A DNA stretch of 48,404 nt from an uncultured Gammaproteobacteria bacterium (GTDB lineage Bacteria > Pseudomonadota > Gammaproteobacteria > GCA-002705445 > GCA-002716945): assembly GCA_913041905.1 (NCBI GenBank), contig CAJWJQ010000002.1, forward strand, positions 1 to 48,404. Direction: 5' to 3'. Shown in pieces: positions 16,059 to 31,000 of this stretch. The notes beneath the pieces are model-generated. The model was not told the DNA's origin. It saw only the letters and a list, made by a program, of their open reading frames with translations, and made no database searches. Numbering within the stretch: the stretch's first letter is position 1; every line of letters starts with the position of its first letter. Made by a program: the position numbers and the translations under genes.

Positions 16059-17058
16059 AAAATATATTTGTATTATTAAAAGAGTTATTTATAGGTTTTC
16101 TCATTACAAAACAGCTTACTAGAGTTTCCAATTGATGCCAAATATTAATGTTATTAGAACCTAGTTTGATGGATTTGTCTATGGAGTAACAAAATTCTAA
16201 CATACCTTCTAACGTTTTCTTGTCAAATTCACTAACTAAAGAGTTATATAGGTCTTTTTTATAATTTGATATAAAAGGCTTTGGGGATAAATCAAACATT
16301 AAATAATATACTTTCTTAATTTCATTGTGTATTAAAAAAAGTATATAAGGTTCTGGGGATTTAACCATATTTAAATATTGAAGAATCTTTAAGGACTTAG
16401 GAAGATTACCTTCTAGGGCCACATCGATCAAATCATATTCTGTATACTTGTAGGATTTTTGTGTATATTTTATATATGAATCTACGTTATCTAATTTTAA
16501 TAGTGACATTTTGTATAACTCTTGTGCAATTGCAGAAGTATTTCCTTCATTTTTCTCTAAAATTTTAGTTAAAGATTCTTTTGTAAATTTTACTTTATTT
16601 CTTTGAAACTTATTCTCAATCCATTTTTGTAATATTTGCCCCTTCAATTCTATAATTTCAATTATGCAATGATTCTTTTCTATGTGCGAATAAAATTTAT
16701 TTCTTTTAAATGCGCTAGTTTGTGCCCCAACCTTAATGATTATTTTTAAATCTTTTGGTATAGCGGTATTTAAGATAAAATCCAGCAATAATTTGGGTAT
16801 GGTGCTGCTCAACACGTTTAAAATAATTAATTTTTTTTCACTAAATAATGACAATGTTTCAAAGTCATTCCTTATTAAGTCTAGATTAAAGTCTGAATCA
16901 ATTAAATAAGTCTTAATATCAAGATCTTCAGACTTGAGTTTAAATTCAATATGGAATTGTACTTCATTTTGCAAATGGTAAGGCTTGCCAACAAGCAAAT
17001 ATATAGAAGACTCAGGTATACTACGGTGCTCAAAGAATTGTTTATAATTAATTTTCAT
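16048..17058 (-). CDS. holA: DNA polymerase III delta subunit
   Basis: 336 aa. The N-terminal YLLVGKPYHLQNEV resembles HolA, and length and neighbourhood are compatible. Overlaps proA by 11 nt. Confidence 0.65.
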   Translation of the reverse strand: MKINYKQFFEHRSIPESSIYLLVGKPYHLQNEVQFHIEFKLKSEDLDIKTYLIDSDFNLDLIRNDFETLSLFSEKKLIILNVLSSTIPKLLLDFILNTAIPKDLKIIIKVGAQTSAFKRNKFYSHIEKNHCIIEIIELKGQILQKWIENKFQRNKVKFTKESLTKILEKNEGNTSAIAQELYKMSLLKLDNVDSYIKYTQKSYKYTEYDLIDVALEGNLPKSLKILQYLNMVKSPEPYILFLIHNEIKKVYYLMFDLSPKPFISNYKKDLYNSLVSEFDKKTLEGMLEFCYSIDKSIKLGSNNINIWHQLETLVSCFVMRKPINNSFNNTNIFYAD

Positions 17059-17091
17059 ATGATAAATTTACTAGATTCTATACAATATATC

Positions 17092-17982
17092 ATGGATGAA
17101 AAAAAACCTCATAGTGAAATCGGATTTATTGGTCTTGGAATTATGGGAAAACCCATGGCTAAAAACCTTGTAGATTCGGGTTTCAAAGTATATTTTTTTG
17201 CTAGGAAACAAAAAATAATAAAAGAGATGGTTTCATATGGTGGCAAGTATCTTAATAAAATTCAAGATATTTCTCAAAAATGTAAAGTTATATTTTTAAA
17301 TTTACCAAATTCTAAAGATGTAAAAAACGTAGTGCTGAGTAAAAATGGGTTATGGCATAACCTACAAAAAAATACAATTATTATTGATATGAGCACTATA
17401 TCTCCTGAAACAACAAAAGAGGTTTTTAAAAAACTAAAAACTAAAAATGTTTTTTTAATTGATGCTCCTGTTTCTGGAGGTGAAATGGGGGCCATTAATG
17501 GTGATTTATCTATTATGGTTGGTGGTAATAAAAAAATATATAATAAAATAAAAAGTTTATTATCAATACTAGGTAAAAATATTACATATATTGGTCCCAC
17601 AGGTTCTGGACAAATAACAAAAGCGTGTAATCAAATACTTGTCGCTGGAACAATGGTTGCGGTAAGCGAAATATTTCTATTAGCTAAAAAATCAAAATGT
17701 AATTTAAATTTGATACAAAAAGCTTTATTGGGAGGTTTTGCAAATAGTAAAATATTAGATATTCATGGCAAAAGAATGATTAAAAAAAACTATAAGCCAG
17801 GCTTTAAAACTAGGCTGCATTTAAAAGATTTAAACATAGCTTTAAATCTTTCAAAGAATTTAAACATTGACTTAAAAAGTGCTAAATATTCTAAAAAACT
17901 TATGTTAAGTGCAGTAAACAGTGGTGAACAAAACAAGGATTCTTCAATAATTAATAAAATAATACAAAAAAATAATAAATAA
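17092..17982 (+). CDS. NAD(P)-dependent beta-hydroxyacid dehydrogenase (3-hydroxyisobutyrate / 2-hydroxy-3-oxopropionate reductase family)
   Basis: The Rossmann motif IGFIGLGIMGKPMAKNL follows the ATG at 17092, DAPVSGG is present, and a length of about 296 aa fits the family. The ORF-track start at 16951 runs antisense through the holA N-terminus and is not credible. Confidence 0.8.
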   Translation: MDEKKPHSEIGFIGLGIMGKPMAKNLVDSGFKVYFFARKQKIIKEMVSYGGKYLNKIQDISQKCKVIFLNLPNSKDVKNVVLSKNGLWHNLQKNTIIIDMSTISPETTKEVFKKLKTKNVFLIDAPVSGGEMGAINGDLSIMVGGNKKIYNKIKSLLSILGKNITYIGPTGSGQITKACNQILVAGTMVAVSEIFLLAKKSKCNLNLIQKALLGGFANSKILDIHGKRMIKKNYKPGFKTRLHLKDLNIALNLSKNLNIDLKSAKYSKKLMLSAVNSGEQNKDSSIINKIIQKNNK

Positions 17983-18019
17983 ATTTTTAAAAAATATAAA
18001 CTTAGCATATACTGTTTAT

Positions 18020-18415
18020 ATGAGAAAATTTGAAACTTTGTTAATAGAAAATAATATAACACCAACAAAGCAGCGACTTGATTTAGCAGAAATAGTATTT
18101 GTAAGGAATCAACATTTTACAGCAGCTGATTTGATTAATACTGCTAACGAATCTAAACTGTTTATTTCACAAGCAACAATTTATAACACACTATGTATAT
18201 TTGAAGAAAAGGGGTTGTTAAAAACAATAAATTTACAAAATGAGTGTAAATTCTACGACACGAACCTTAGCTCTCATCACCATGTTTATAATACTAGTGC
18301 AAATACTTTAACAGATATAAGTAATGACCAAATTAAGTTTTCTAAAAAACCTGATATACCCCAACACCTTGAGCTAGAAGCAACAGAAGTATTGATTAAA
18401 GTAAAAAATAAATAA
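18020..18415 (+). CDS. Fur-family transcriptional regulator, Cys-less Irr-like subtype
   Basis: 131 aa with a winged-helix region (TPTKQRLDLAEIVF...ISQATIYNTLCIFEEKGLL), then FYDTNLSSHHHVY. There are no CxxC pairs. The overall layout resembles rhizobial Irr as I recall it. Confidence 0.7.
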   Translation: MRKFETLLIENNITPTKQRLDLAEIVFVRNQHFTAADLINTANESKLFISQATIYNTLCIFEEKGLLKTINLQNECKFYDTNLSSHHHVYNTSANTLTDISNDQIKFSKKPDIPQHLELEATEVLIKVKNK

Positions 18416-18997
18416 CTATAAAAAATCTTTGCGAAGAGATTGAGTAATTAGTTTGTCTATTTTTATAGAATCATTATAATCCTTATGATCACAACCTAAA
18501 AATATTTCGTAAGAATTCTGGAAACCACGAATACATTCTTCATCTAATTGAAATCTTAAGAAATGGACTGCGGATGTTTTTTTGTCATTTGACCTTTCTA
18601 AATCTTCGTCAGGGATTGCATATAATTTTTGTGAATTATCAACTGTAAGCCAAATATTATTTTCAATACCTTTCAATTTACTCAGCATTGTTTTTCTATG
18701 ATTTACATCTGAATACATAATTAACATAGTAGCCTTTAAATTATTGCCTTCGGGTATTAAAGGTTGGTAAGCGTTTATTTCATCCTGAATTTCTTCTTCG
18801 TTAAAAATTTTCTCAATTCTGAGCATTTCTTGCACCTGATATTTAATAGTTTCAAAATCTTCAAATAATAGAACTATGTGTTCTCCAATAGAGACCGCTC
18901 TATTTTTTTTATGATTAATTAAATTTGATTTAATAGTTTCTCTTTGTTTGTCATAATTCTCGAGAGATAATAAATCATTAGCTGTTAATTTACGCAT
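18416..18997 (-). CDS. DUF3501-family protein (function unknown)
   Basis: 193-aa soluble protein. Its length, and its position downstream of a CCG Fe-S protein and a rubrerythrin, match my recollection of the DUF3501 family context. Needs HMM confirmation. Confidence 0.55.
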   Translation of the reverse strand: MRKLTANDLLSLENYDKQRETIKSNLINHKKNRAVSIGEHIVLLFEDFETIKYQVQEMLRIEKIFNEEEIQDEINAYQPLIPEGNNLKATMLIMYSDVNHRKTMLSKLKGIENNIWLTVDNSQKLYAIPDEDLERSNDKKTSAVHFLRFQLDEECIRGFQNSYEIFLGCDHKDYNDSIKIDKLITQSLRKDFL

Positions 18998-19005
18998 AAT
19001 TTTCT

Positions 19006-20310
19006 CTAATTTATCCCGTAGGCTCTTTTAAATAAACTAATTGGGTGTATTGGCGGGATTTTATTACCGACAGCATTTACAATATGATGCGCTGCTAACG
19101 TGCAATCACTGGTTAAAATTTCTGCTTTATCTTTATTAAATTCTCTTACTATTGGTTTTGCTATCTTTATCGCAATTTCATGAGTCTCTTTTTTAACACC
19201 ATAAGTTCCATCATGTCCAGAACATTTTTCTACAGCATTAACATTGGTATTTGGTATAAGTTCTAAAACTTTTTTAGTTACTTGTCCAATATTTTGCACT
19301 CTCTGATGGCATGCAACTTGATAAAAAATAGAGCCTAGATCTTGTTTAAAATCAATTTTAAGATTACCATCTTCATGAAGGTTTAATAGATATTCAAAAG
19401 GGTCATAAATTGAGTCTGCAATTTTTTTAATTTCTATATCATTAGGAAATAATAGTGGCAGTTCTTTTTTAAACATCAATACACACGAAGGGACTGGCGC
19501 TATAATTTTAAATCCTTTTTCAATATAACGCATTAATTTGACAGAATTTTGTTGTATTACTTTTTCTACTGTCGCCAAATCTCCTAATTCAAGTTTTGGC
19601 ATTCCGCAACATTGATCATCTTTTATAACTTCAATGTTAATATTATTGTGTTGTAATACTAACACTAAATCATCGATCACCTGTGGCTCATTATAATTAT
19701 GATAACAGGTTGTATATATCGCTACCTTATGTATAGAATTATCATTGCTTGAAAGTTTTTTAAATTTGGATTTAGCTGTTATAGCAGAAAATTTTGGCAA
19801 TACAGCATTTTTATGAATATGTAAAATTTTCTCTAACAAGATTCTAAAAGGTTTTAACTTATTAAAGAAATTAACTATGTGTGAAATAATTTTTCTAGAG
19901 AAAACTACACCTAAAAGATCGGTAGATGTTAATAATCTATCTCTAAAAGATGGTTTTAATTTATTAAATTTTATTGCTTTGCCTCTTAACATTAAGTGTG
20001 GGAAGTCAATTTTCCAATCATGAGGTGGCACATATGGGCATTTCGTCATAAAACATAAATCACATAAATAACAATGACTGATGACAGACTCAAAATCATT
20101 ATACTCTACCCCATCAACCTCAAACGTTTTCGAGTTATCTATTAGGTCAAATAATGTGGGGAAAGAGTTGCATAAACTAACACATCTTCTGCATCCATGA
20201 CATGCATCTGCAACCCTTCTTAATTCCTTTTCAAATAATTTTTCATTATAATAATCGGTATTTTTCCAATCGATAACATATCTTTCGGGTTTTTGTAGAC
20301 CACCTTCCAT
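19006..20310 (-). CDS. (Fe-S)-binding CCG-domain oxidoreductase, HdrD/GlpC/LutA-like
   Basis: 434 aa with two 4Fe-4S ferredoxin motifs (CHGCRRCVSLC and CYLCDLCFMTKCP). There are two CCG-type domains, QCCGMP and a degenerate KCSGHDG. A GGAG RBS lies 5 nt upstream of the ATG. Confidence 0.8.
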   Translation of the reverse strand: MEGGLQKPERYVIDWKNTDYYNEKLFEKELRRVADACHGCRRCVSLCNSFPTLFDLIDNSKTFEVDGVEYNDFESVISHCYLCDLCFMTKCPYVPPHDWKIDFPHLMLRGKAIKFNKLKPSFRDRLLTSTDLLGVVFSRKIISHIVNFFNKLKPFRILLEKILHIHKNAVLPKFSAITAKSKFKKLSSNDNSIHKVAIYTTCYHNYNEPQVIDDLVLVLQHNNINIEVIKDDQCCGMPKLELGDLATVEKVIQQNSVKLMRYIEKGFKIIAPVPSCVLMFKKELPLLFPNDIEIKKIADSIYDPFEYLLNLHEDGNLKIDFKQDLGSIFYQVACHQRVQNIGQVTKKVLELIPNTNVNAVEKCSGHDGTYGVKKETHEIAIKIAKPIVREFNKDKAEILTSDCTLAAHHIVNAVGNKIPPIHPISLFKRAYGIN

Positions 20311-20375
20311 CGCTACTCCAGTCTTTTGGGTTTAATATATTGGCAGCTATCCTTAAAAAGAAAGTAAAAAATATT

Positions 20376-20795
20376 TTATGATATTGTCTCTAGAGCTTTA
20401 GCAAATCTATTTGCGTGCGATCTTTCAGCTTTTGCTAAAGTTTCAAACCAATCAGCTATTTCATCAAAACCTTCATCTCTAGCAATTTTGGCCATACCAG
20501 GATACATATCGCTATACTCATGCGTTTCACCAGCTATCGCTGCCTTAAGATTTGCACTGCTGTCTCCAATTGGTTCGCCAGTTGCAGGATCACCACATTC
20601 TTTTTCAAGATATTCCATATGTCCATGCGCATGTCCAGTTTCACCTTCAGCAGTTGATCGAAAAACTGCAGCAACATCGTTTTGACCTTCAACATCAGCT
20701 TTTGCTGCAAAATATAAATACCTTCTATTTGCTTGTGATTCACCAGAAAATGCATCTTTAAGACTTTGTTCAGTTTTGGAACCCTTTAAATTCAT
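20376..20795 (-). CDS. Rubrerythrin-family diiron protein lacking the rubredoxin domain (erythrin type)
   Basis: 139 aa with the four-helix-bundle ligand pattern GESQA / EGETGHAHGH / AGETHEY / AERSHANRF. There are no C-terminal CxxC pairs. AGGAGA RBS upstream. Confidence 0.85.
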   Translation of the reverse strand: MNLKGSKTEQSLKDAFSGESQANRRYLYFAAKADVEGQNDVAAVFRSTAEGETGHAHGHMEYLEKECGDPATGEPIGDSSANLKAAIAGETHEYSDMYPGMAKIARDEGFDEIADWFETLAKAERSHANRFAKALETIS

Positions 20796-20818
20796 TTTAT
20801 TCTCCTTTTTTTAAATAA

Positions 20819-20835
20819 CTTAGAATCATTCTAAG
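20819..20835 (-). promoter_or_regulatory. Perfect 8-1-8 palindrome CTTAGAAT-C-ATTCTAAG, an Irr/ICE-like operator candidate
   Basis: Read directly from the sequence. The core TTAGAA-N3-TTCTAA equals the core of the ICE consensus TTTAGAA-N3-TTCTAAA. It lies 24-40 nt upstream of the rubrerythrin ATG. Confidence 0.6.
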
Positions 20836-20856
20836 TCTAATTATAGCGGTTGTCAA
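20828..20856 (-). promoter_or_regulatory. Predicted sigma70-type promoter of the rubrerythrin operon
   Basis: On the minus strand: -35 TTGACA (20856-20851), a 17-nt spacer, and -10 TAGAAT (20833-20828). The -10 lies inside the palindrome. Confidence 0.55.
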
Positions 20857-20902
20857 TTGATGCATATAAAAAAAACACGGAAGTATGATAAACTAATATT
20901 TT

Positions 20903-21940
20903 ATGGAAATTAAAAAAATTTTTTTTTCGATATATAAACAGTTAATTTTTCTTCTACCTCCAGAAACAGCTCATTCTGTCACTTTGTCTATGGCAGAAAA
21001 AGTCTATAAATCATTTTTAAAAAATATAGTTTCTTCTAAAATAACAATTAATGAGAGAAAAGTTATGGGAATTACTTTCCCTAATATGCTTGGACTTGCT
21101 GCAGGTTTTGATAAAAACGGTGACTATTTAAATTTTATAAATAACATAGGATTAGGCTTTGTTGAGTTAGGCACGATAACACCAAAACCTCAGTACGGAA
21201 ATAACAAACCTAGAATATTTAGAGTTACCAGCGAAGAAGCAATTATTAATCATCTTGGTTTTAATAATAAAGGAGTATCTTACTTAAAAGAAAAACTTAG
21301 ACATTTTAATAGGAATATACCAATTGGTATAAATATTGGTAAAAATAGTAGTACTCCAATTGATAAAGCTTATGAAGACTATGAGTATTGTATGCATGAA
21401 ATTTTTGAATTTTCTGATTATCTTACGTTAAATATATCTTCACCTAATACTCTCAAGCTCAGAGAGCTTCATTCTAAAGATTATTTAGATAATTTTTTAA
21501 AAAAAATTAAAACCACTCATGAAAAATTATCAAAAAGATATAAAAAAAATGTTCCTTTATTACTAAAAATATCTCCAGATATTACTCAAGAAGATCTTGA
21601 TAATATTTGTAATTCTATAAAACATTATGGTATTGATGGTGTCATAGCAACAAATACTACTATAGATAAATCAATTCTAAAAAATAAAAAACTTTTAAGA
21701 TATAGTGGCGGTGTTAGTGGTATGCCGTTATTAACAAAATCTAATAAAATTATTGAATCATTAAAAAAACTTGTAGGAAGTAATGTGGCTATTATTGGTT
21801 GTGGAGGTGTATCATCAAAAGAAGCAGCTTTAAATAAGATTGCGTTAGGCTCTGATTTAATACAACTATACACGGGTCTTGTTTATTCAGGAACAAGTTT
21901 GATTCAAGAAATTACAGGTTTAAACAATAAGTCTATTTAG
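20903..21940 (+). CDS. pyrD: Dihydroorotate dehydrogenase (quinone), class 2
   Basis: 345 aa with an N-terminal membrane-association helix and GLAAGFDKNG, GFVELGTITPKPQ, NISSPNT and IGCGGV motifs. Confidence 0.9.
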   Translation: MEIKKIFFSIYKQLIFLLPPETAHSVTLSMAEKVYKSFLKNIVSSKITINERKVMGITFPNMLGLAAGFDKNGDYLNFINNIGLGFVELGTITPKPQYGNNKPRIFRVTSEEAIINHLGFNNKGVSYLKEKLRHFNRNIPIGINIGKNSSTPIDKAYEDYEYCMHEIFEFSDYLTLNISSPNTLKLRELHSKDYLDNFLKKIKTTHEKLSKRYKKNVPLLLKISPDITQEDLDNICNSIKHYGIDGVIATNTTIDKSILKNKKLLRYSGGVSGMPLLTKSNKIIESLKKLVGSNVAIIGCGGVSSKEAALNKIALGSDLIQLYTGLVYSGTSLIQEITGLNNKSI

Positions 21941-22264: not shown

Positions 22265-22960
22265 ATGCAAGATTTAAAATCTTATACAATAAAAACTTTT
22301 GAAGTTGGTCCGATGTTAAATTTCATATATTTAATAATTGATAATAGAACTAAATATACAGCAATCATAGATCCAGCTTGGGATTTATCTGAGATATACA
22401 AATATATTGATGACAATAATTTAATTTTACAAAAAATACTATTAACGCATAGTCATCATGATCATGTTAATGCTATTGATGAGATTCTAAAAATGTATGA
22501 CGTACCTGTGCACATAAATGATAAAGAAAGGTCTTTTTGGGGGGAAAATTATGATAATTTTTTAATAAATCATGGAGGCGATACAATAAAACTAGGCGAT
22601 TTAGATATTAAATCTATCCATAGCCCAGGACATACTCCAGGCTCTACATGTTATCACCTAGATAAAAATCTAATTGCTGGTGATACTCTTTTTGTTTTTG
22701 GCTGCGGGAGATGTGATTTACACGGAGGGAGCCCAGAAGAAATGTTTAAAACTTTGGGTCATATAAAATCATCGTTAGATAAAAATACAGTAATACTGCC
22801 AGGTCATAATTATTCAATAAAAAAAGAGTCTACTCTAAATGAAGAACTTATAGGTAATCCATTTTTTCATTTTACCCAATTAGAAAATTTTATCGAATAT
22901 AGAATGAAGGTGCATGATAACATACGATCATCCCCTTACTCTCCAGTAGAAAAAAAATAA
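22265..22960 (+). CDS. MBL-fold metallo-hydrolase (glyoxalase II-like)
   Basis: 231 aa with the THSHHDH metal-binding motif, plus downstream HSPGHTPGS and LPGH. Confidence 0.8.
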   Translation: MQDLKSYTIKTFEVGPMLNFIYLIIDNRTKYTAIIDPAWDLSEIYKYIDDNNLILQKILLTHSHHDHVNAIDEILKMYDVPVHINDKERSFWGENYDNFLINHGGDTIKLGDLDIKSIHSPGHTPGSTCYHLDKNLIAGDTLFVFGCGRCDLHGGSPEEMFKTLGHIKSSLDKNTVILPGHNYSIKKESTLNEELIGNPFFHFTQLENFIEYRMKVHDNIRSSPYSPVEKK

Positions 22961-29641: not shown

Positions 29642-31000
29642 TTAATTACAAGCTTTCTTTTTCTCAACTGTATCAATAACCTCTCCATATAAAGAATTTG
29701 GTCTAATTTCTGTAATATAAATATCAACAAAACCTCCTATATATTTTGTGTCAGCATTAAAGTTTATAATTTTATTATTATCTGATCTACCGTATAACTC
29801 ATTATTTCTTTTTACAGATATACCTTCCACTAATACACGTTGTTTTGTATCTAGCATTTTTTTAGCGTAGGATAAAGATTGATTCTTGATTAATTCCTGA
29901 AGGTTTTTAAGTCTTTTCTTTTTAGTGTCCATTGAGATATTATCTTTTTCAAAAGATGCTGGTGTTCCTGGTCTTGGGCTGTATATAAAACTATATGCAT
30001 TGCTAAAATTTAATTCCTCAATAAAATCTAAAGTTTGCTGAAACTGATAATCAGTTTCACCCGGATAACCTACAATGAAATCAGATGTTAAGTTAATATC
30101 TGGCCTTATCTTTCTAACTTTTTTTATTATATTTTTATACTCTAATACAGTATGCTTTCGTTTCATCCTTGAAAGTATAAAATCTGATCCAGATTGTACT
30201 GGCAGATGAAGATTATTAGCTAATTTAGTATTATGGTGTTCCTGAATAAGGTCATCGGTAAAATCTACAGGATGAGAAGTGCTATACCTGATTCTCTTAA
30301 TTCCCTTTATATGTGACATATATCTTATAAGATCCGAGAATGATACATGTTGTTTTTTATTATTTAATGACCTATAAGCGTTTACATTTTGTCCAAGCAA
30401 TGTAATTTCTTTTGCTCCTAATTTAATTAAAGAGTTTGCTTCATACAAAATATCATCAAACCTTCTATTTACCTCTTCTCCTCTTGTATATGGGACAACA
30501 CAAAATGTGCAATATTTACTACAACCCTCCATTATGGATAAAGAAGCAGTCGGTGTACTCTTTGTAGAAAAAGGCAGGTAATCAAATTTTTCGATTTCAG
30601 GAAAATTTATGTCAATGTCTATTTTTTTTCTTTTATAAACTATATTTTCAATCATCTTCGGCAATCTATGTATTGTCTGAGGTCCAAAAATTATATCTAC
30701 TTCAGGTGATCTAGATCTTATTTTTGTACCCTCTTGAGAGGCAACACAACCTCCTACGGCAATTAATAAGTTAGGTTTTTTTATTTTTAGTTTTTTCCAT
30801 CTTCCTAATTGATGAAAAACTTTTTCTTGAGCTTTTTCTCTGATGGAGCAAGTATTGAGAAGCAGCATGTCTGCATCTTCGGGGTTATTTGTTTCCATCA
30901 TTTTTAAGTTATGTTGTAAAACATCACCAAGTCTGTCTGAATCATATTCATTCATTTGACAGCCTTGAGTTTGTATAAAAAATTTTTTATTTTCGAGCAT
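29642..31000 (-). CDS. miaB: tRNA-i6A37 methylthiotransferase MiaB
   Basis: 452 aa with an N-terminal UPF0004 Cys triad (GCQMN...), the radical-SAM motif CSKYCTFCVVP and a C-terminal TRAM domain. Confidence 0.9.
   Translation of the reverse strand: MLENKKFFIQTQGCQMNEYDSDRLGDVLQHNLKMMETNNPEDADMLLLNTCSIREKAQEKVFHQLGRWKKLKIKKPNLLIAVGGCVASQEGTKIRSRSPEVDIIFGPQTIHRLPKMIENIVYKRKKIDIDINFPEIEKFDYLPFSTKSTPTASLSIMEGCSKYCTFCVVPYTRGEEVNRRFDDILYEANSLIKLGAKEITLLGQNVNAYRSLNNKKQHVSFSDLIRYMSHIKGIKRIRYSTSHPVDFTDDLIQEHHNTKLANNLHLPVQSGSDFILSRMKRKHTVLEYKNIIKKVRKIRPDINLTSDFIVGYPGETDYQFQQTLDFIEELNFSNAYSFIYSPRPGTPASFEKDNISMDTKKKRLKNLQELIKNQSLSYAKKMLDTKQRVLVEGISVKRNNELYGRSDNNKIINFNADTKYIGGFVDIYITEIRPNSLYGEVIDTVEKKKACN

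Follow-up and report, generated by a model that had tools for sequence, protein, structure and literature searches.

Irr, studied experimentally in Bradyrhizobium japonicum, is a Fur-family regulator that lacks the CxxC zinc site, carries an HHH motif and acts at a 17-bp palindrome, the iron control element (ICE). A 2006 study detected neither Irr nor ICE beyond the Alphaproteobacteria; it predicted that Irr of Pelagibacter ubique controls just one rubrerythrin gene, and it predicted 'minimal Irr regulons' in Rhodospirillum and Magnetospirillum as well (Rodionov et al. 2006, PMC1698941). An 'Irr-type' regulator was named in Acidithiobacilli in 2008, at the level of annotation (PMC2631029). In Rhodobacter sphaeroides, the verified direct targets of Irr (RSP_3179) are mbfA, which encodes an erythrin-domain protein, and ccpA, which encodes a cytochrome c peroxidase; deletion mainly altered resistance to H2O2 and singlet oxygen, with loss of Irr mainly raising H2O2 resistance, and regulation was a complex mix of activation and dampened induction (Peuser et al. 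2012, PMC3413700). The operator of Leptospira interrogans PerRA, a cysteine-less peroxide sensor, resembles Irr boxes, and the His/Asp ligand residues are common to true Irr and PerR proteins (PMC8638967). The 'aerobic-type' rubrerythrin unit RBR-RFO-DUF3501 was described by Cardenas et al. in 2016 in a paper that is silent on regulators and promoters (PMC5114695). Here we describe a 48,404-nucleotide (nt) stretch of DNA from an uncultured gammaproteobacterium (contig CAJWJQ010000002.1, positions 1 to 48,404; hereafter the window), in which the palindrome CTTAGAATcATTCTAAG (20819-20835) lies over the predicted promoter of such a rubrerythrin (rbr) operon. Based on sequence comparisons, this palindrome is probably the operator of a homodimeric, cysteine-less Irr/PerRA-like Fur-family repressor, most likely a 131-amino-acid protein encoded 2.4 kb away, that would block a peroxide-defence operon.

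The candidate operator is a perfect 8-1-8 inverted repeat that grows to 9-1-9 at 20818-20836 through the pair A20818/T20836, and it contains the 7-1-7 architecture of Fur-family boxes (TTAGAAT-n-ATTCTAA). It matches the ICE consensus TTTRGAAYNRTTCYAAA (PMC1698941) at 15 of 17 positions; all 12 core positions are exact, and only the outermost C and G, a symmetric pair, deviate. Judged from its sequence, the operator is a legitimate ICE-type box. On the minus strand we find a -35 hexamer TTGACA (20851-20856) and, after a 17-nt spacer, a -10 hexamer TAGAAT (20828-20833) that is at the same time the operator half-site on the upstream side of the rbr promoter. This is the top promoter-like match within 17800-21100, with 11 of 12 consensus positions, and the hexamers fit sigma-70 spacing (17 +/- 1 nt) and are conserved in the clade, with the start being a predicted one. 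Transcription would begin near 20821, inside the other half-site and 5-9 nt past the -10, ahead of an AGGAG Shine-Dalgarno sequence (20806-20802) that lies 6 nt 5' of the rbr ATG at 20795. These readings agree with a preliminary description of the window, made from the letters alone, which had reported the perfect repeat, the TTGACA/17 nt/TAGAAT promoter on the rubrerythrin strand, the double role of the -10 hexamer and the 12 matching ICE core positions with symmetric outermost differences.

To follow the box in other genomes we used the best 80 rbr loci, whose orthologues are 81-93% identical to the rubrerythrin of the window, and a clade set of ten further syntenic loci reached through close homologues of the regulator, plus loci L001 and L002. 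The clade set yields seven distinct spacers between rbr and the divergent gene pyrD. Their alignment shows conservation in two blocks only, [T/C]TTAGAAT[C/G]ATTCTAA[A/G]T and TGTCAA (the -35 on the rbr strand), 16-17 nt apart, while the rest of the spacer has diverged or carries indels. By its sequence pattern this is the classical picture given by phylogenetic footprinting where an operator overlaps a promoter. Close relatives have the complete ICE form TTTAGAAT.ATTCTAAA. In many loci of the larger set, even in genomes of 50-68% GC, TTAGAA-N3-TTCTAA, TTAGAC-N3-GTCTAA or hybrids of the two lie 20-136 nt from the rbr start, and TTAGAC-N3-GTCTAA is the prevalent form in Gamma- and Betaproteobacteria. 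The dominant box there differs from the alphaproteobacterial ICE in having C/G at positions -2/+2.

The pattern TTAGA[AC]N3[GT]TCTAA has 33 matches in 23.9 kb of DNA upstream of rbr versus one in the other 705 kb, an enrichment of about 900-fold upstream of orthologous rbr operons, although the figure is partly circular, as the 80 loci counted had also served to define this degenerate pattern. An exact box is present in 31 of the 80 rbr loci, and 40 have one when up to one mismatch is allowed. The lone box away from rbr (L032) is upstream of a di-haem cytochrome c peroxidase gene (ccp) that adjoins an Irr-like gene. The circularity is mitigated by the flanking positions, which were not selected, and by an independent metagenome set described below: outside the search pattern, positions -8/+8 are T/A in 74% of sites, and positions -1/+1 are likewise T/A in 74%, both agreeing with ICE. 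Thus the box stands in the target promoters and is conserved upstream of orthologues, as is expected of an ICE. The half-site doubles as the -10 (TAGAAT or TAGACT), with five or six of the six TTGACA positions found 16-18 nt upstream, in L001, L002, L007, L018, L062 and L084. Both the conservation upstream of orthologous operons and the promoter enrichment that the preliminary description had put forward as checks are borne out, in the seven clade spacers, in the 33 rbr sites, and in rbr and ccp promoters against the 705 kb elsewhere.

We compared the palindrome with chance expectation in this AT-rich sequence. Perfect 8-1-8 repeats number three in the window versus 2.5 +/- 1.4 expected (first-order Markov simulations of a 29% GC window), and 9-1-9 repeats number two versus 0.63. 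We therefore rejected palindromy by itself as evidence (three against 2.5), and because it is at chance level the weight lies on the specific sequence and on its conservation across genomes. The exact core TTAGAA-N3-TTCTAA is found once in the window with 0.03 expected, while its two-mismatch versions, 13 against 13.6 expected, are at chance. The chance-frequency check proposed earlier held for the specific ICE core; the earlier statement that the window has no second full copy was also correct, since there is one exact core and the degenerate copies are at chance. Elsewhere in the window, a 9-1-9 palindrome, GAAACTGATAATCAGTTTC (30040-30058), lies within an open reading frame on the minus strand (29642-31000), and an 8-1-8 palindrome, AAAATTATGATAATTTT (22545-22561), lies within a gene for a metallo-beta-lactamase-fold protein.

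These frequencies bear on a simpler explanation, in which the site is only a strong promoter, TAGAAT being kept as its -10 and the inverted repeat having arisen by chance in AT-rich DNA. The chance-level counts of 8-1-8 palindromes and of two-mismatch matches would fit it. However, conservation extends to both halves of the repeat, even the downstream one, which plays no part in the promoter; the palindrome recurs in 50-68% GC genomes at varying distance from rbr and with no -35 upstream; it is also found upstream of ccp and irr-like genes; and the 34 exact sites all lie in target promoters, with none elsewhere in 705 kb. The promoter-only explanation is effectively refuted, and we give it a very small probability.

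We assign an even smaller one to the palindrome acting as a nucleic-acid hairpin (a structure in the RNA 5' untranslated region, an attenuator or a cruciform) in place of a protein-binding site. If transcribed, the repeat would form a stem of 8-9 bp with a folding energy of -6.2 to -7.8 kcal/mol and z-scores of -3.0 to -3.7. Such a stem is weak at -6 to -8 kcal/mol, and with the predicted start inside the palindrome it would be transcribed only in part. Further, among the 18 distinct exact sites, hybrids of A-type and C-type halves break complementarity in six and the inner positions are non-complementary in 12; such hybrid or mispaired sites remain compatible with separate recognition of each half-site by a protein. 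Sequence identity, and not pairing alone, is kept across the classes of site, and there was no match to an Rfam family. A hairpin or terminator role was rejected on the hybrid sites, the weak stem and the partial transcription.

The presumed cognate regulator is the 131-amino-acid Fur-family protein encoded at 18020-18415 on the plus strand (PF01475, 65.6 bits), convergent with the DUF3501 gene. Its best NCBIfam models are the Irr equivalogs NF045677 and NF045678, at 106.7 bits for Irr (cut-off 170) and 105.8 bits for IrrA (cut-off 150), so both equivalog cut-offs are missed. The Leptospira PerRA model gives 78.5 bits (cut-off 200), and PerR models give 33-78 bits and do not reach their cut-offs of 180-250. 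The closest solved structure is that of Leptospira PerRA (5nl9, 58 bits). By BLASTP the protein scores 91-107 bits against gammaproteobacterial Irr-like proteins, 79 against alphaproteobacterial Irr, 64 against PerRA, 40 against Bacillus subtilis PerR and 32 against Escherichia coli Fur. By structure match and BLASTP its likeness to Leptospira PerRA is nearly as strong as that to Irr. In the alignment the residues H32, D80, H86-H87-H88 and D99 are conserved, as is Asn56 in the recognition helix. There is no CxxC, and with it no structural Zn(Cys)4 site; the protein thus has the Irr trait of a Fur fold without CxxC and with an HHH/HxH motif. Its ligands are of the PerR type, with Asp where Fur has Glu, and since this ligand set is common to Irr and PerR it does not discriminate between the two models. 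The Cys-Pro haem regulatory motif of Bradyrhizobium-type Irr is absent from the sequence. A C-terminal segment, LP..P...D..IR, aligns with true Irr and not with PerR or Fur. The JGI pipeline labels these proteins 'Fur family iron response transcriptional regulator'.

The comparison with described regulators is accordingly mixed. As with alphaproteobacterial Irr, the regulon is minimal and comprises genes for rubrerythrin-like proteins or di-haem cytochrome c peroxidases, two kinds of target that are both seen here or in relatives; like R. sphaeroides Irr, functionally the nearest characterized analogue, the system has a small, peroxidase-centred regulon. Unlike these, the host here is a gammaproteobacterium, the regulator reaches 106-107 bits where alphaproteobacterial neighbours of rbr reach 183-212, and R. 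sphaeroides has a bona fide alphaproteobacterial Irr that targets mbfA rather than an rbr/Fe-S oxidoreductase/DUF3501 operon. With L. interrogans PerRA (5nl9) the regulator shares the lack of cysteines and structural zinc, the Asp-type ligands, the Asn in the recognition helix and, as predicted for its family, control of peroxidase genes and autoregulation, but PerRA is a spirochaete protein that is about 35% identical over 97 residues and has other target genes. B. subtilis PerR likewise acts through a 7-1-7 repeat over peroxide-defence promoters and is autoregulated, and its H37, D85, H91, H93, D104 and N61 correspond to H32, D80, H86, H88, D99 and N56; it differs in having a Cys4 zinc site, in being only 28% identical and in reading TTATAAT where this box reads TTAGAAT, a symmetric change at the fourth position. 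On sequence grounds the regulator is neither a bona fide Irr, given its scores and host, nor a canonical PerR, given the missing zinc site and the sub-cut-off scores.

Upstream of the regulator gene lies a promoter-like site, TTTAAA-16-TATACT (17986-18013, plus strand), that ends 6 nt before the ATG at 18020 with no Shine-Dalgarno sequence, suggesting that the mRNA is probably leaderless. TATAAT is found at the equivalent place in all relatives. The half-site-like CTTAGCA that the preliminary description had placed near 18000 does exist, at 18001-18007, but it is not part of a conserved full operator: in the clade of the window we found no full palindrome upstream of the regulator, only a loose CTAG/CTTAG element and the conserved -10. 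A full operator at this position in the clade was therefore rejected.

To link the box to a regulator, we scored co-occurrence by adjacency. In seven of the 80 loci rbr has an Irr-like gene no more than 5 kb away, and all seven have the box (Fisher p = 0.012), whereas a full-length OxyR homologue adjoins rbr in eight loci and none of them has it (Fisher p = 0.005), both p-values being optimistic given that the loci are phylogenetically related. The adjacent OxyR homologues (L003, L005, L008, L016, L022, L024, L026 and L028) are 37-52% identical to E. coli OxyR. Consistent with this division, an OxyR-type ATAG-N7-CTAT element is found upstream of rbr in 13 of 40 box-less versus one of 40 box-bearing loci, and three times in the 705 kb elsewhere. 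In other Gamma- and Betaproteobacteria the same operon thus has a divergent OxyR homologue and these elements instead, which suggests a common peroxide-response purpose; OxyR itself, a LysR-type activator unrelated to the Irr-like regulator, senses through thiols and uses a different DNA motif, and its gene and the ICE-like box are mutually exclusive here. Since L003 carries a SAR86 label, the peroxide regulator at this operon differs among related marine Gammaproteobacteria. One Thiodiazotropha-type locus (L032) has both a one-mismatch ICE-like box and ATAG-N7-CTAT upstream of rbr, at about -136 and -84, and dual control is possible there.

In L017 and L048 a true alphaproteobacterial Irr gene adjoins this rbr operon, and the box is present there too; the two alphaproteobacterial cases among the seven (Pelagibius and a Rhodospirillaceae metagenome-assembled genome) score 183-212 bits and pass the Irr cut-offs. 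Gammaproteobacterial Irr-like proteins encoded next to rbr score 104-125 bits on the Irr models, and three more such genes, looked up singly, also adjoin the operon. In Thiodiazotropha-type loci the regulator gene is followed by ccp, with boxes upstream of ccp, rbr or both.

The independent set was gathered from metagenomes with a profile of gammaproteobacterial Irr-like proteins and comprises 80 loci, 78 of them with enough upstream DNA; only four of the 80 adjoin an rbr operon. A box lies no more than 200 nt upstream of the Irr-like gene itself in 29 of the 78. This amounts to 29 boxes in 15.7 kb versus three in 397 kb, and those three are rbr promoters. The autoregulatory boxes are mostly [A/C/T]TAGAC-TTT-GTCTAA. 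Because these loci were chosen only by their protein, the boxes upstream of Irr-like genes argue that the family recognizes the box, and we regard this autoregulatory placement as strong sequence evidence. A conserved context recurs in many sediment and marine Gammaproteobacteria of this set (L097-L174): the Irr-like gene directly follows a gene for a DAO-family (ThiO-like) oxidoreductase, sucA lies downstream, and either type IV pilin genes or ispH lie upstream. This arrangement suggests no evident functional connection, and the genes around the Irr-like genes are housekeeping genes unrelated to them. A separate profile search for homologues was filled by the marine clade and gave little taxonomic breadth.

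The same data bear on whether the box is bound instead by a regulator encoded elsewhere (canonical Fur, a zinc-site PerR or a member of an unrelated family), the adjacent Irr-like gene being coincidental. PerR boxes read TTATAAT-n-ATTATAA and Fur boxes TGATAAT-n-ATTATCA. These share the 7-1-7 layout, and by these consensuses the site is one symmetric position away from a PerR box; most box-bearing loci also show no regulator within 5 kb. Yet the site has four mismatches in 14 to the Fur box, all seven cases of Irr-like adjacency have the box, and it stands directly upstream of Irr-like genes in the 29 loci picked only by protein. In addition, box-bearing loci have no neighbouring gene for another Fur-family protein or transcription factor; in those without an Irr-like neighbour we found no rival regulator next to the operon, the neighbours being housekeeping genes (xseB-ispA-dxs, parE, pcnB and radA-like genes), and another adjacent regulator was rejected on that basis. 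Binding by a regulator encoded elsewhere is very improbable.

Overall, the ICE core, the overlap with the -10, the conservation, the enrichment and the tracking with Irr-like genes support the dimeric repressor that the preliminary description had suggested for the rbr promoter. From sequence we infer that the 131-amino-acid protein binds the site, that it acts by repression, where transcription starts and which signal is sensed. A repressor dimer on the palindrome would cover the -10 with one half-site and the predicted start with the other, and with the half-sites so placed on the -10 and +1 a bound dimer would have to keep RNA polymerase off the promoter that serves the rbr, Fe-S oxidoreductase and DUF3501 genes. 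The operon would thereby be silenced, and its product is predicted to be the 'aerobic-type' rubrerythrin H2O2-reducing system. Peroxide stress would modify the metal or haem site of the regulator, as in PerR, and derepress the operon, so that in this lineage the regulator may fill the role that OxyR has at the operon in others.

Regarding the signal, the earlier wording 'iron-responsive or oxidative-stress-responsive' was an appropriate hedge. Peroxide is marginally favoured, at slightly better than even chances. The detectable regulon consists of peroxidases (the rbr operon and ccp) and the regulator itself, OxyR takes the place of the regulator at the rbr operon in other lineages, and the ligand set is PerR-like. 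Peroxide is also suggested by R. sphaeroides, where the nearest characterized minimal Irr has mbfA and ccpA as direct targets and its loss mainly raises H2O2 resistance (PMC3413700), and by the recognition of Irr-like boxes by Leptospira PerRA (PMC8638967). The combination of peroxide detoxification and autoregulation known from PerR regulons is found in relatives; in the window the full box is present only at rbr. Clearly less probable, with roughly half the weight or a little more, is that the same operator and repressor follow classical Irr logic, the repressor binding at iron or haem scarcity and being released or degraded with haem, so that the iron-rich proteins of the operon are made only under iron sufficiency as an iron-sparing measure and peroxide is not the primary signal. 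The sequence similarities lean towards this alternative: the best hidden Markov model matches are Irr and IrrA, BLASTP puts alphaproteobacterial Irr above Leptospira PerRA, the C-terminal LP..P...D..IR segment is Irr-like, the HHH motif is present and the box is identical to the ICE core. Moreover, both Rbr and the Fe-S oxidoreductase are iron proteins, and Irr control of rubrerythrin had been predicted for P. ubique and Rhodospirillales (PMC1698941). Against it, the regulon is limited to peroxidases and the regulator, with no iron-storage, haem or Fe-S biogenesis genes beside boxes; the operon is alternatively paired with the peroxide sensor OxyR; the Cys-Pro haem regulatory motif is missing; rbr mRNA of P. 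ubique went up and not down at iron limitation (PMC2864753); and deletion of R. sphaeroides Irr mainly altered peroxide resistance (PMC3413700). The smaller probability that is left goes to a regulator integrating both peroxide and iron or haem.

Several points weigh against a peroxide-responsive Irr/PerRA-like repressor at this operator. Besides the relatedness of the loci behind the Fisher tests and the partly circular box count, the hidden Markov models favour Irr, as noted. In the genome set, 33 of the 40 loci with a box lack any regulator within 5 kb, and many GC-rich loci have no clear -35 upstream of the half-site, so that the promoter overlap is seen only in some lineages. Finally, under iron limitation P. 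ubique increased rbr mRNA 1.57-fold and the SAR11_0401 protein 2.2-fold (PMC2864753), the latter gene lying two genes from rbr and presumably encoding DUF3501. The rise of rbr at low iron is the opposite of simple Irr repression and fits neither simple model cleanly.

Assignment of the host matters here, as the window regulator falls outside the range to which the 2006 study confined Irr. The nearest relatives of its rbr are in metagenome-assembled genomes labelled Gammaproteobacteria (91-93% identity, with the same pyrD neighbour and the same regulator), followed by a SAR86 single-cell genome at 86% identity. In the 90%-identity clusters of LeuS, SecY, UvrA, YhdP, Rbr and the regulator, all members named by NCBI are 'Gammaproteobacteria bacterium', and the gene content of the window (YhdP, LptE-LeuS-HolA) is compatible with a gammaproteobacterium. 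Rfam and tRNA scans of the window found no rRNA or tRNA. A SAR11 origin, which the low GC, the Irr-like hit and the 2006 prediction for P. ubique had suggested, was rejected because the genome scan and these clusters gave only Gammaproteobacteria labels. Some labels of metagenome-assembled genomes are plainly wrong, as two loci with the proteobacterial type of operon are labelled Bifidobacterium and Nitrosopumilus. On this evidence we treat the source as an uncultured low-GC marine gammaproteobacterium and not as an alphaproteobacterium of the kind in which Irr is typical.

The operon itself consists of exactly the three genes of Cardenas et al. (PMC5114695), all on the minus strand, and has the features of the aerobic type. 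The first encodes a 139-amino-acid rubrerythrin without a rubredoxin domain (20376-20795; PF02915, 100 bits). The second encodes a 434-amino-acid, GlpC-like Fe-S oxidoreductase with CCG domains (19006-20310; PF02754), which is the 'RFO' of those authors and scores under the cut-offs of GlpC models. The third encodes a DUF3501 protein (18416-18997; PF12007, 233 bits). In almost every one of the 80 loci the Fe-S oxidoreductase is co-localized with rbr, and the whole unit is conserved in at least 76 of them. In L082 a gene for a 95-amino-acid EncFtn-like protein (PF22277; 3538-3825) is inserted between the Fe-S oxidoreductase and DUF3501 genes.

At its downstream end the operon meets the regulator gene. 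The two are convergent (window 18413-18418), with 0-5 nt between the stop codons across the clade, including L086-L093, and we found no terminator-like site between the regulator gene and DUF3501. Transcripts reading through from the rbr operon, once it is derepressed, would run antisense to the gene of the repressor and could provide feedback. On the other side, relatives (L086-L093, L001 and L002) have a Fur-box-like 19-mer just upstream of pyrD, for example GATAATGATTCTTGTTATC in L092 and AACAATGATTATCATTCTC in L086, each matching GATAATGATAATCATTATC at 15 of 19 positions, and the counterpart in the window (about 20880-20900) is degenerate. This element may serve pyrD or act as a second input to rbr. 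Upstream of the regulator gene, a listed open reading frame of 343 amino acids (16951-17982; 3-hydroxyisobutyrate-dehydrogenase-like) overlaps holA by 108 nt; relatives call a product of 295-307 amino acids, suggesting that the real start is probably near 17090.

The link between Irr and rubrerythrin is not itself new, having been predicted in 2006 for P. ubique and Rhodospirillales (PMC1698941). In the literature covered, most subscription journals and RegPrecise aside, we found no prior description of a large gamma- and betaproteobacterial sister clade of Irr with a TTAGAC-type box, of its minimal peroxidase regulon and autoregulation, of the mutual exclusivity of Irr-like genes and OxyR at the aerobic-type rbr operon, or of an Irr-like pair in an abundant marine clade, and no report on how the aerobic-type rubrerythrin operon is controlled. 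Tentatively, and at somewhat less than even chances for the joint claim, we propose that the Irr-like proteins widespread in Gamma- and some Betaproteobacteria form a sister clade of Irr whose members are repressors that sense peroxide. The clade would have its own box, [T]TTAGA[C/A]T-n-A[G/T]TCTAA[A], a minimal regulon of the rbr operon, di-haem cytochrome c peroxidase and the regulator itself, and a history of repeated exchange with OxyR at the rbr operon, and it would include very abundant low-GC marine plankton and sulfur-oxidizing symbionts.

If this is true, Irr would be a specialized alphaproteobacterial offshoot of an older lineage of peroxide regulators that includes Leptospira PerRA, and the range of the Irr/ICE pair would extend past the Alphaproteobacteria, where it has been treated as lineage-specific. 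The aerobic-type rubrerythrin operon would have two alternative and mutually exclusive controllers, OxyR or an Irr-like repressor. The finding would also support the idea that Irr and the cysteine-less PerRs form one functional continuum. For the abundant, uncultured and genome-streamlined marine Gammaproteobacteria to which the window belongs, a 17-bp operator and a 131-amino-acid protein would offer a handle on the response to H2O2 and iron, with a bearing on the peroxide ecology of the surface ocean.

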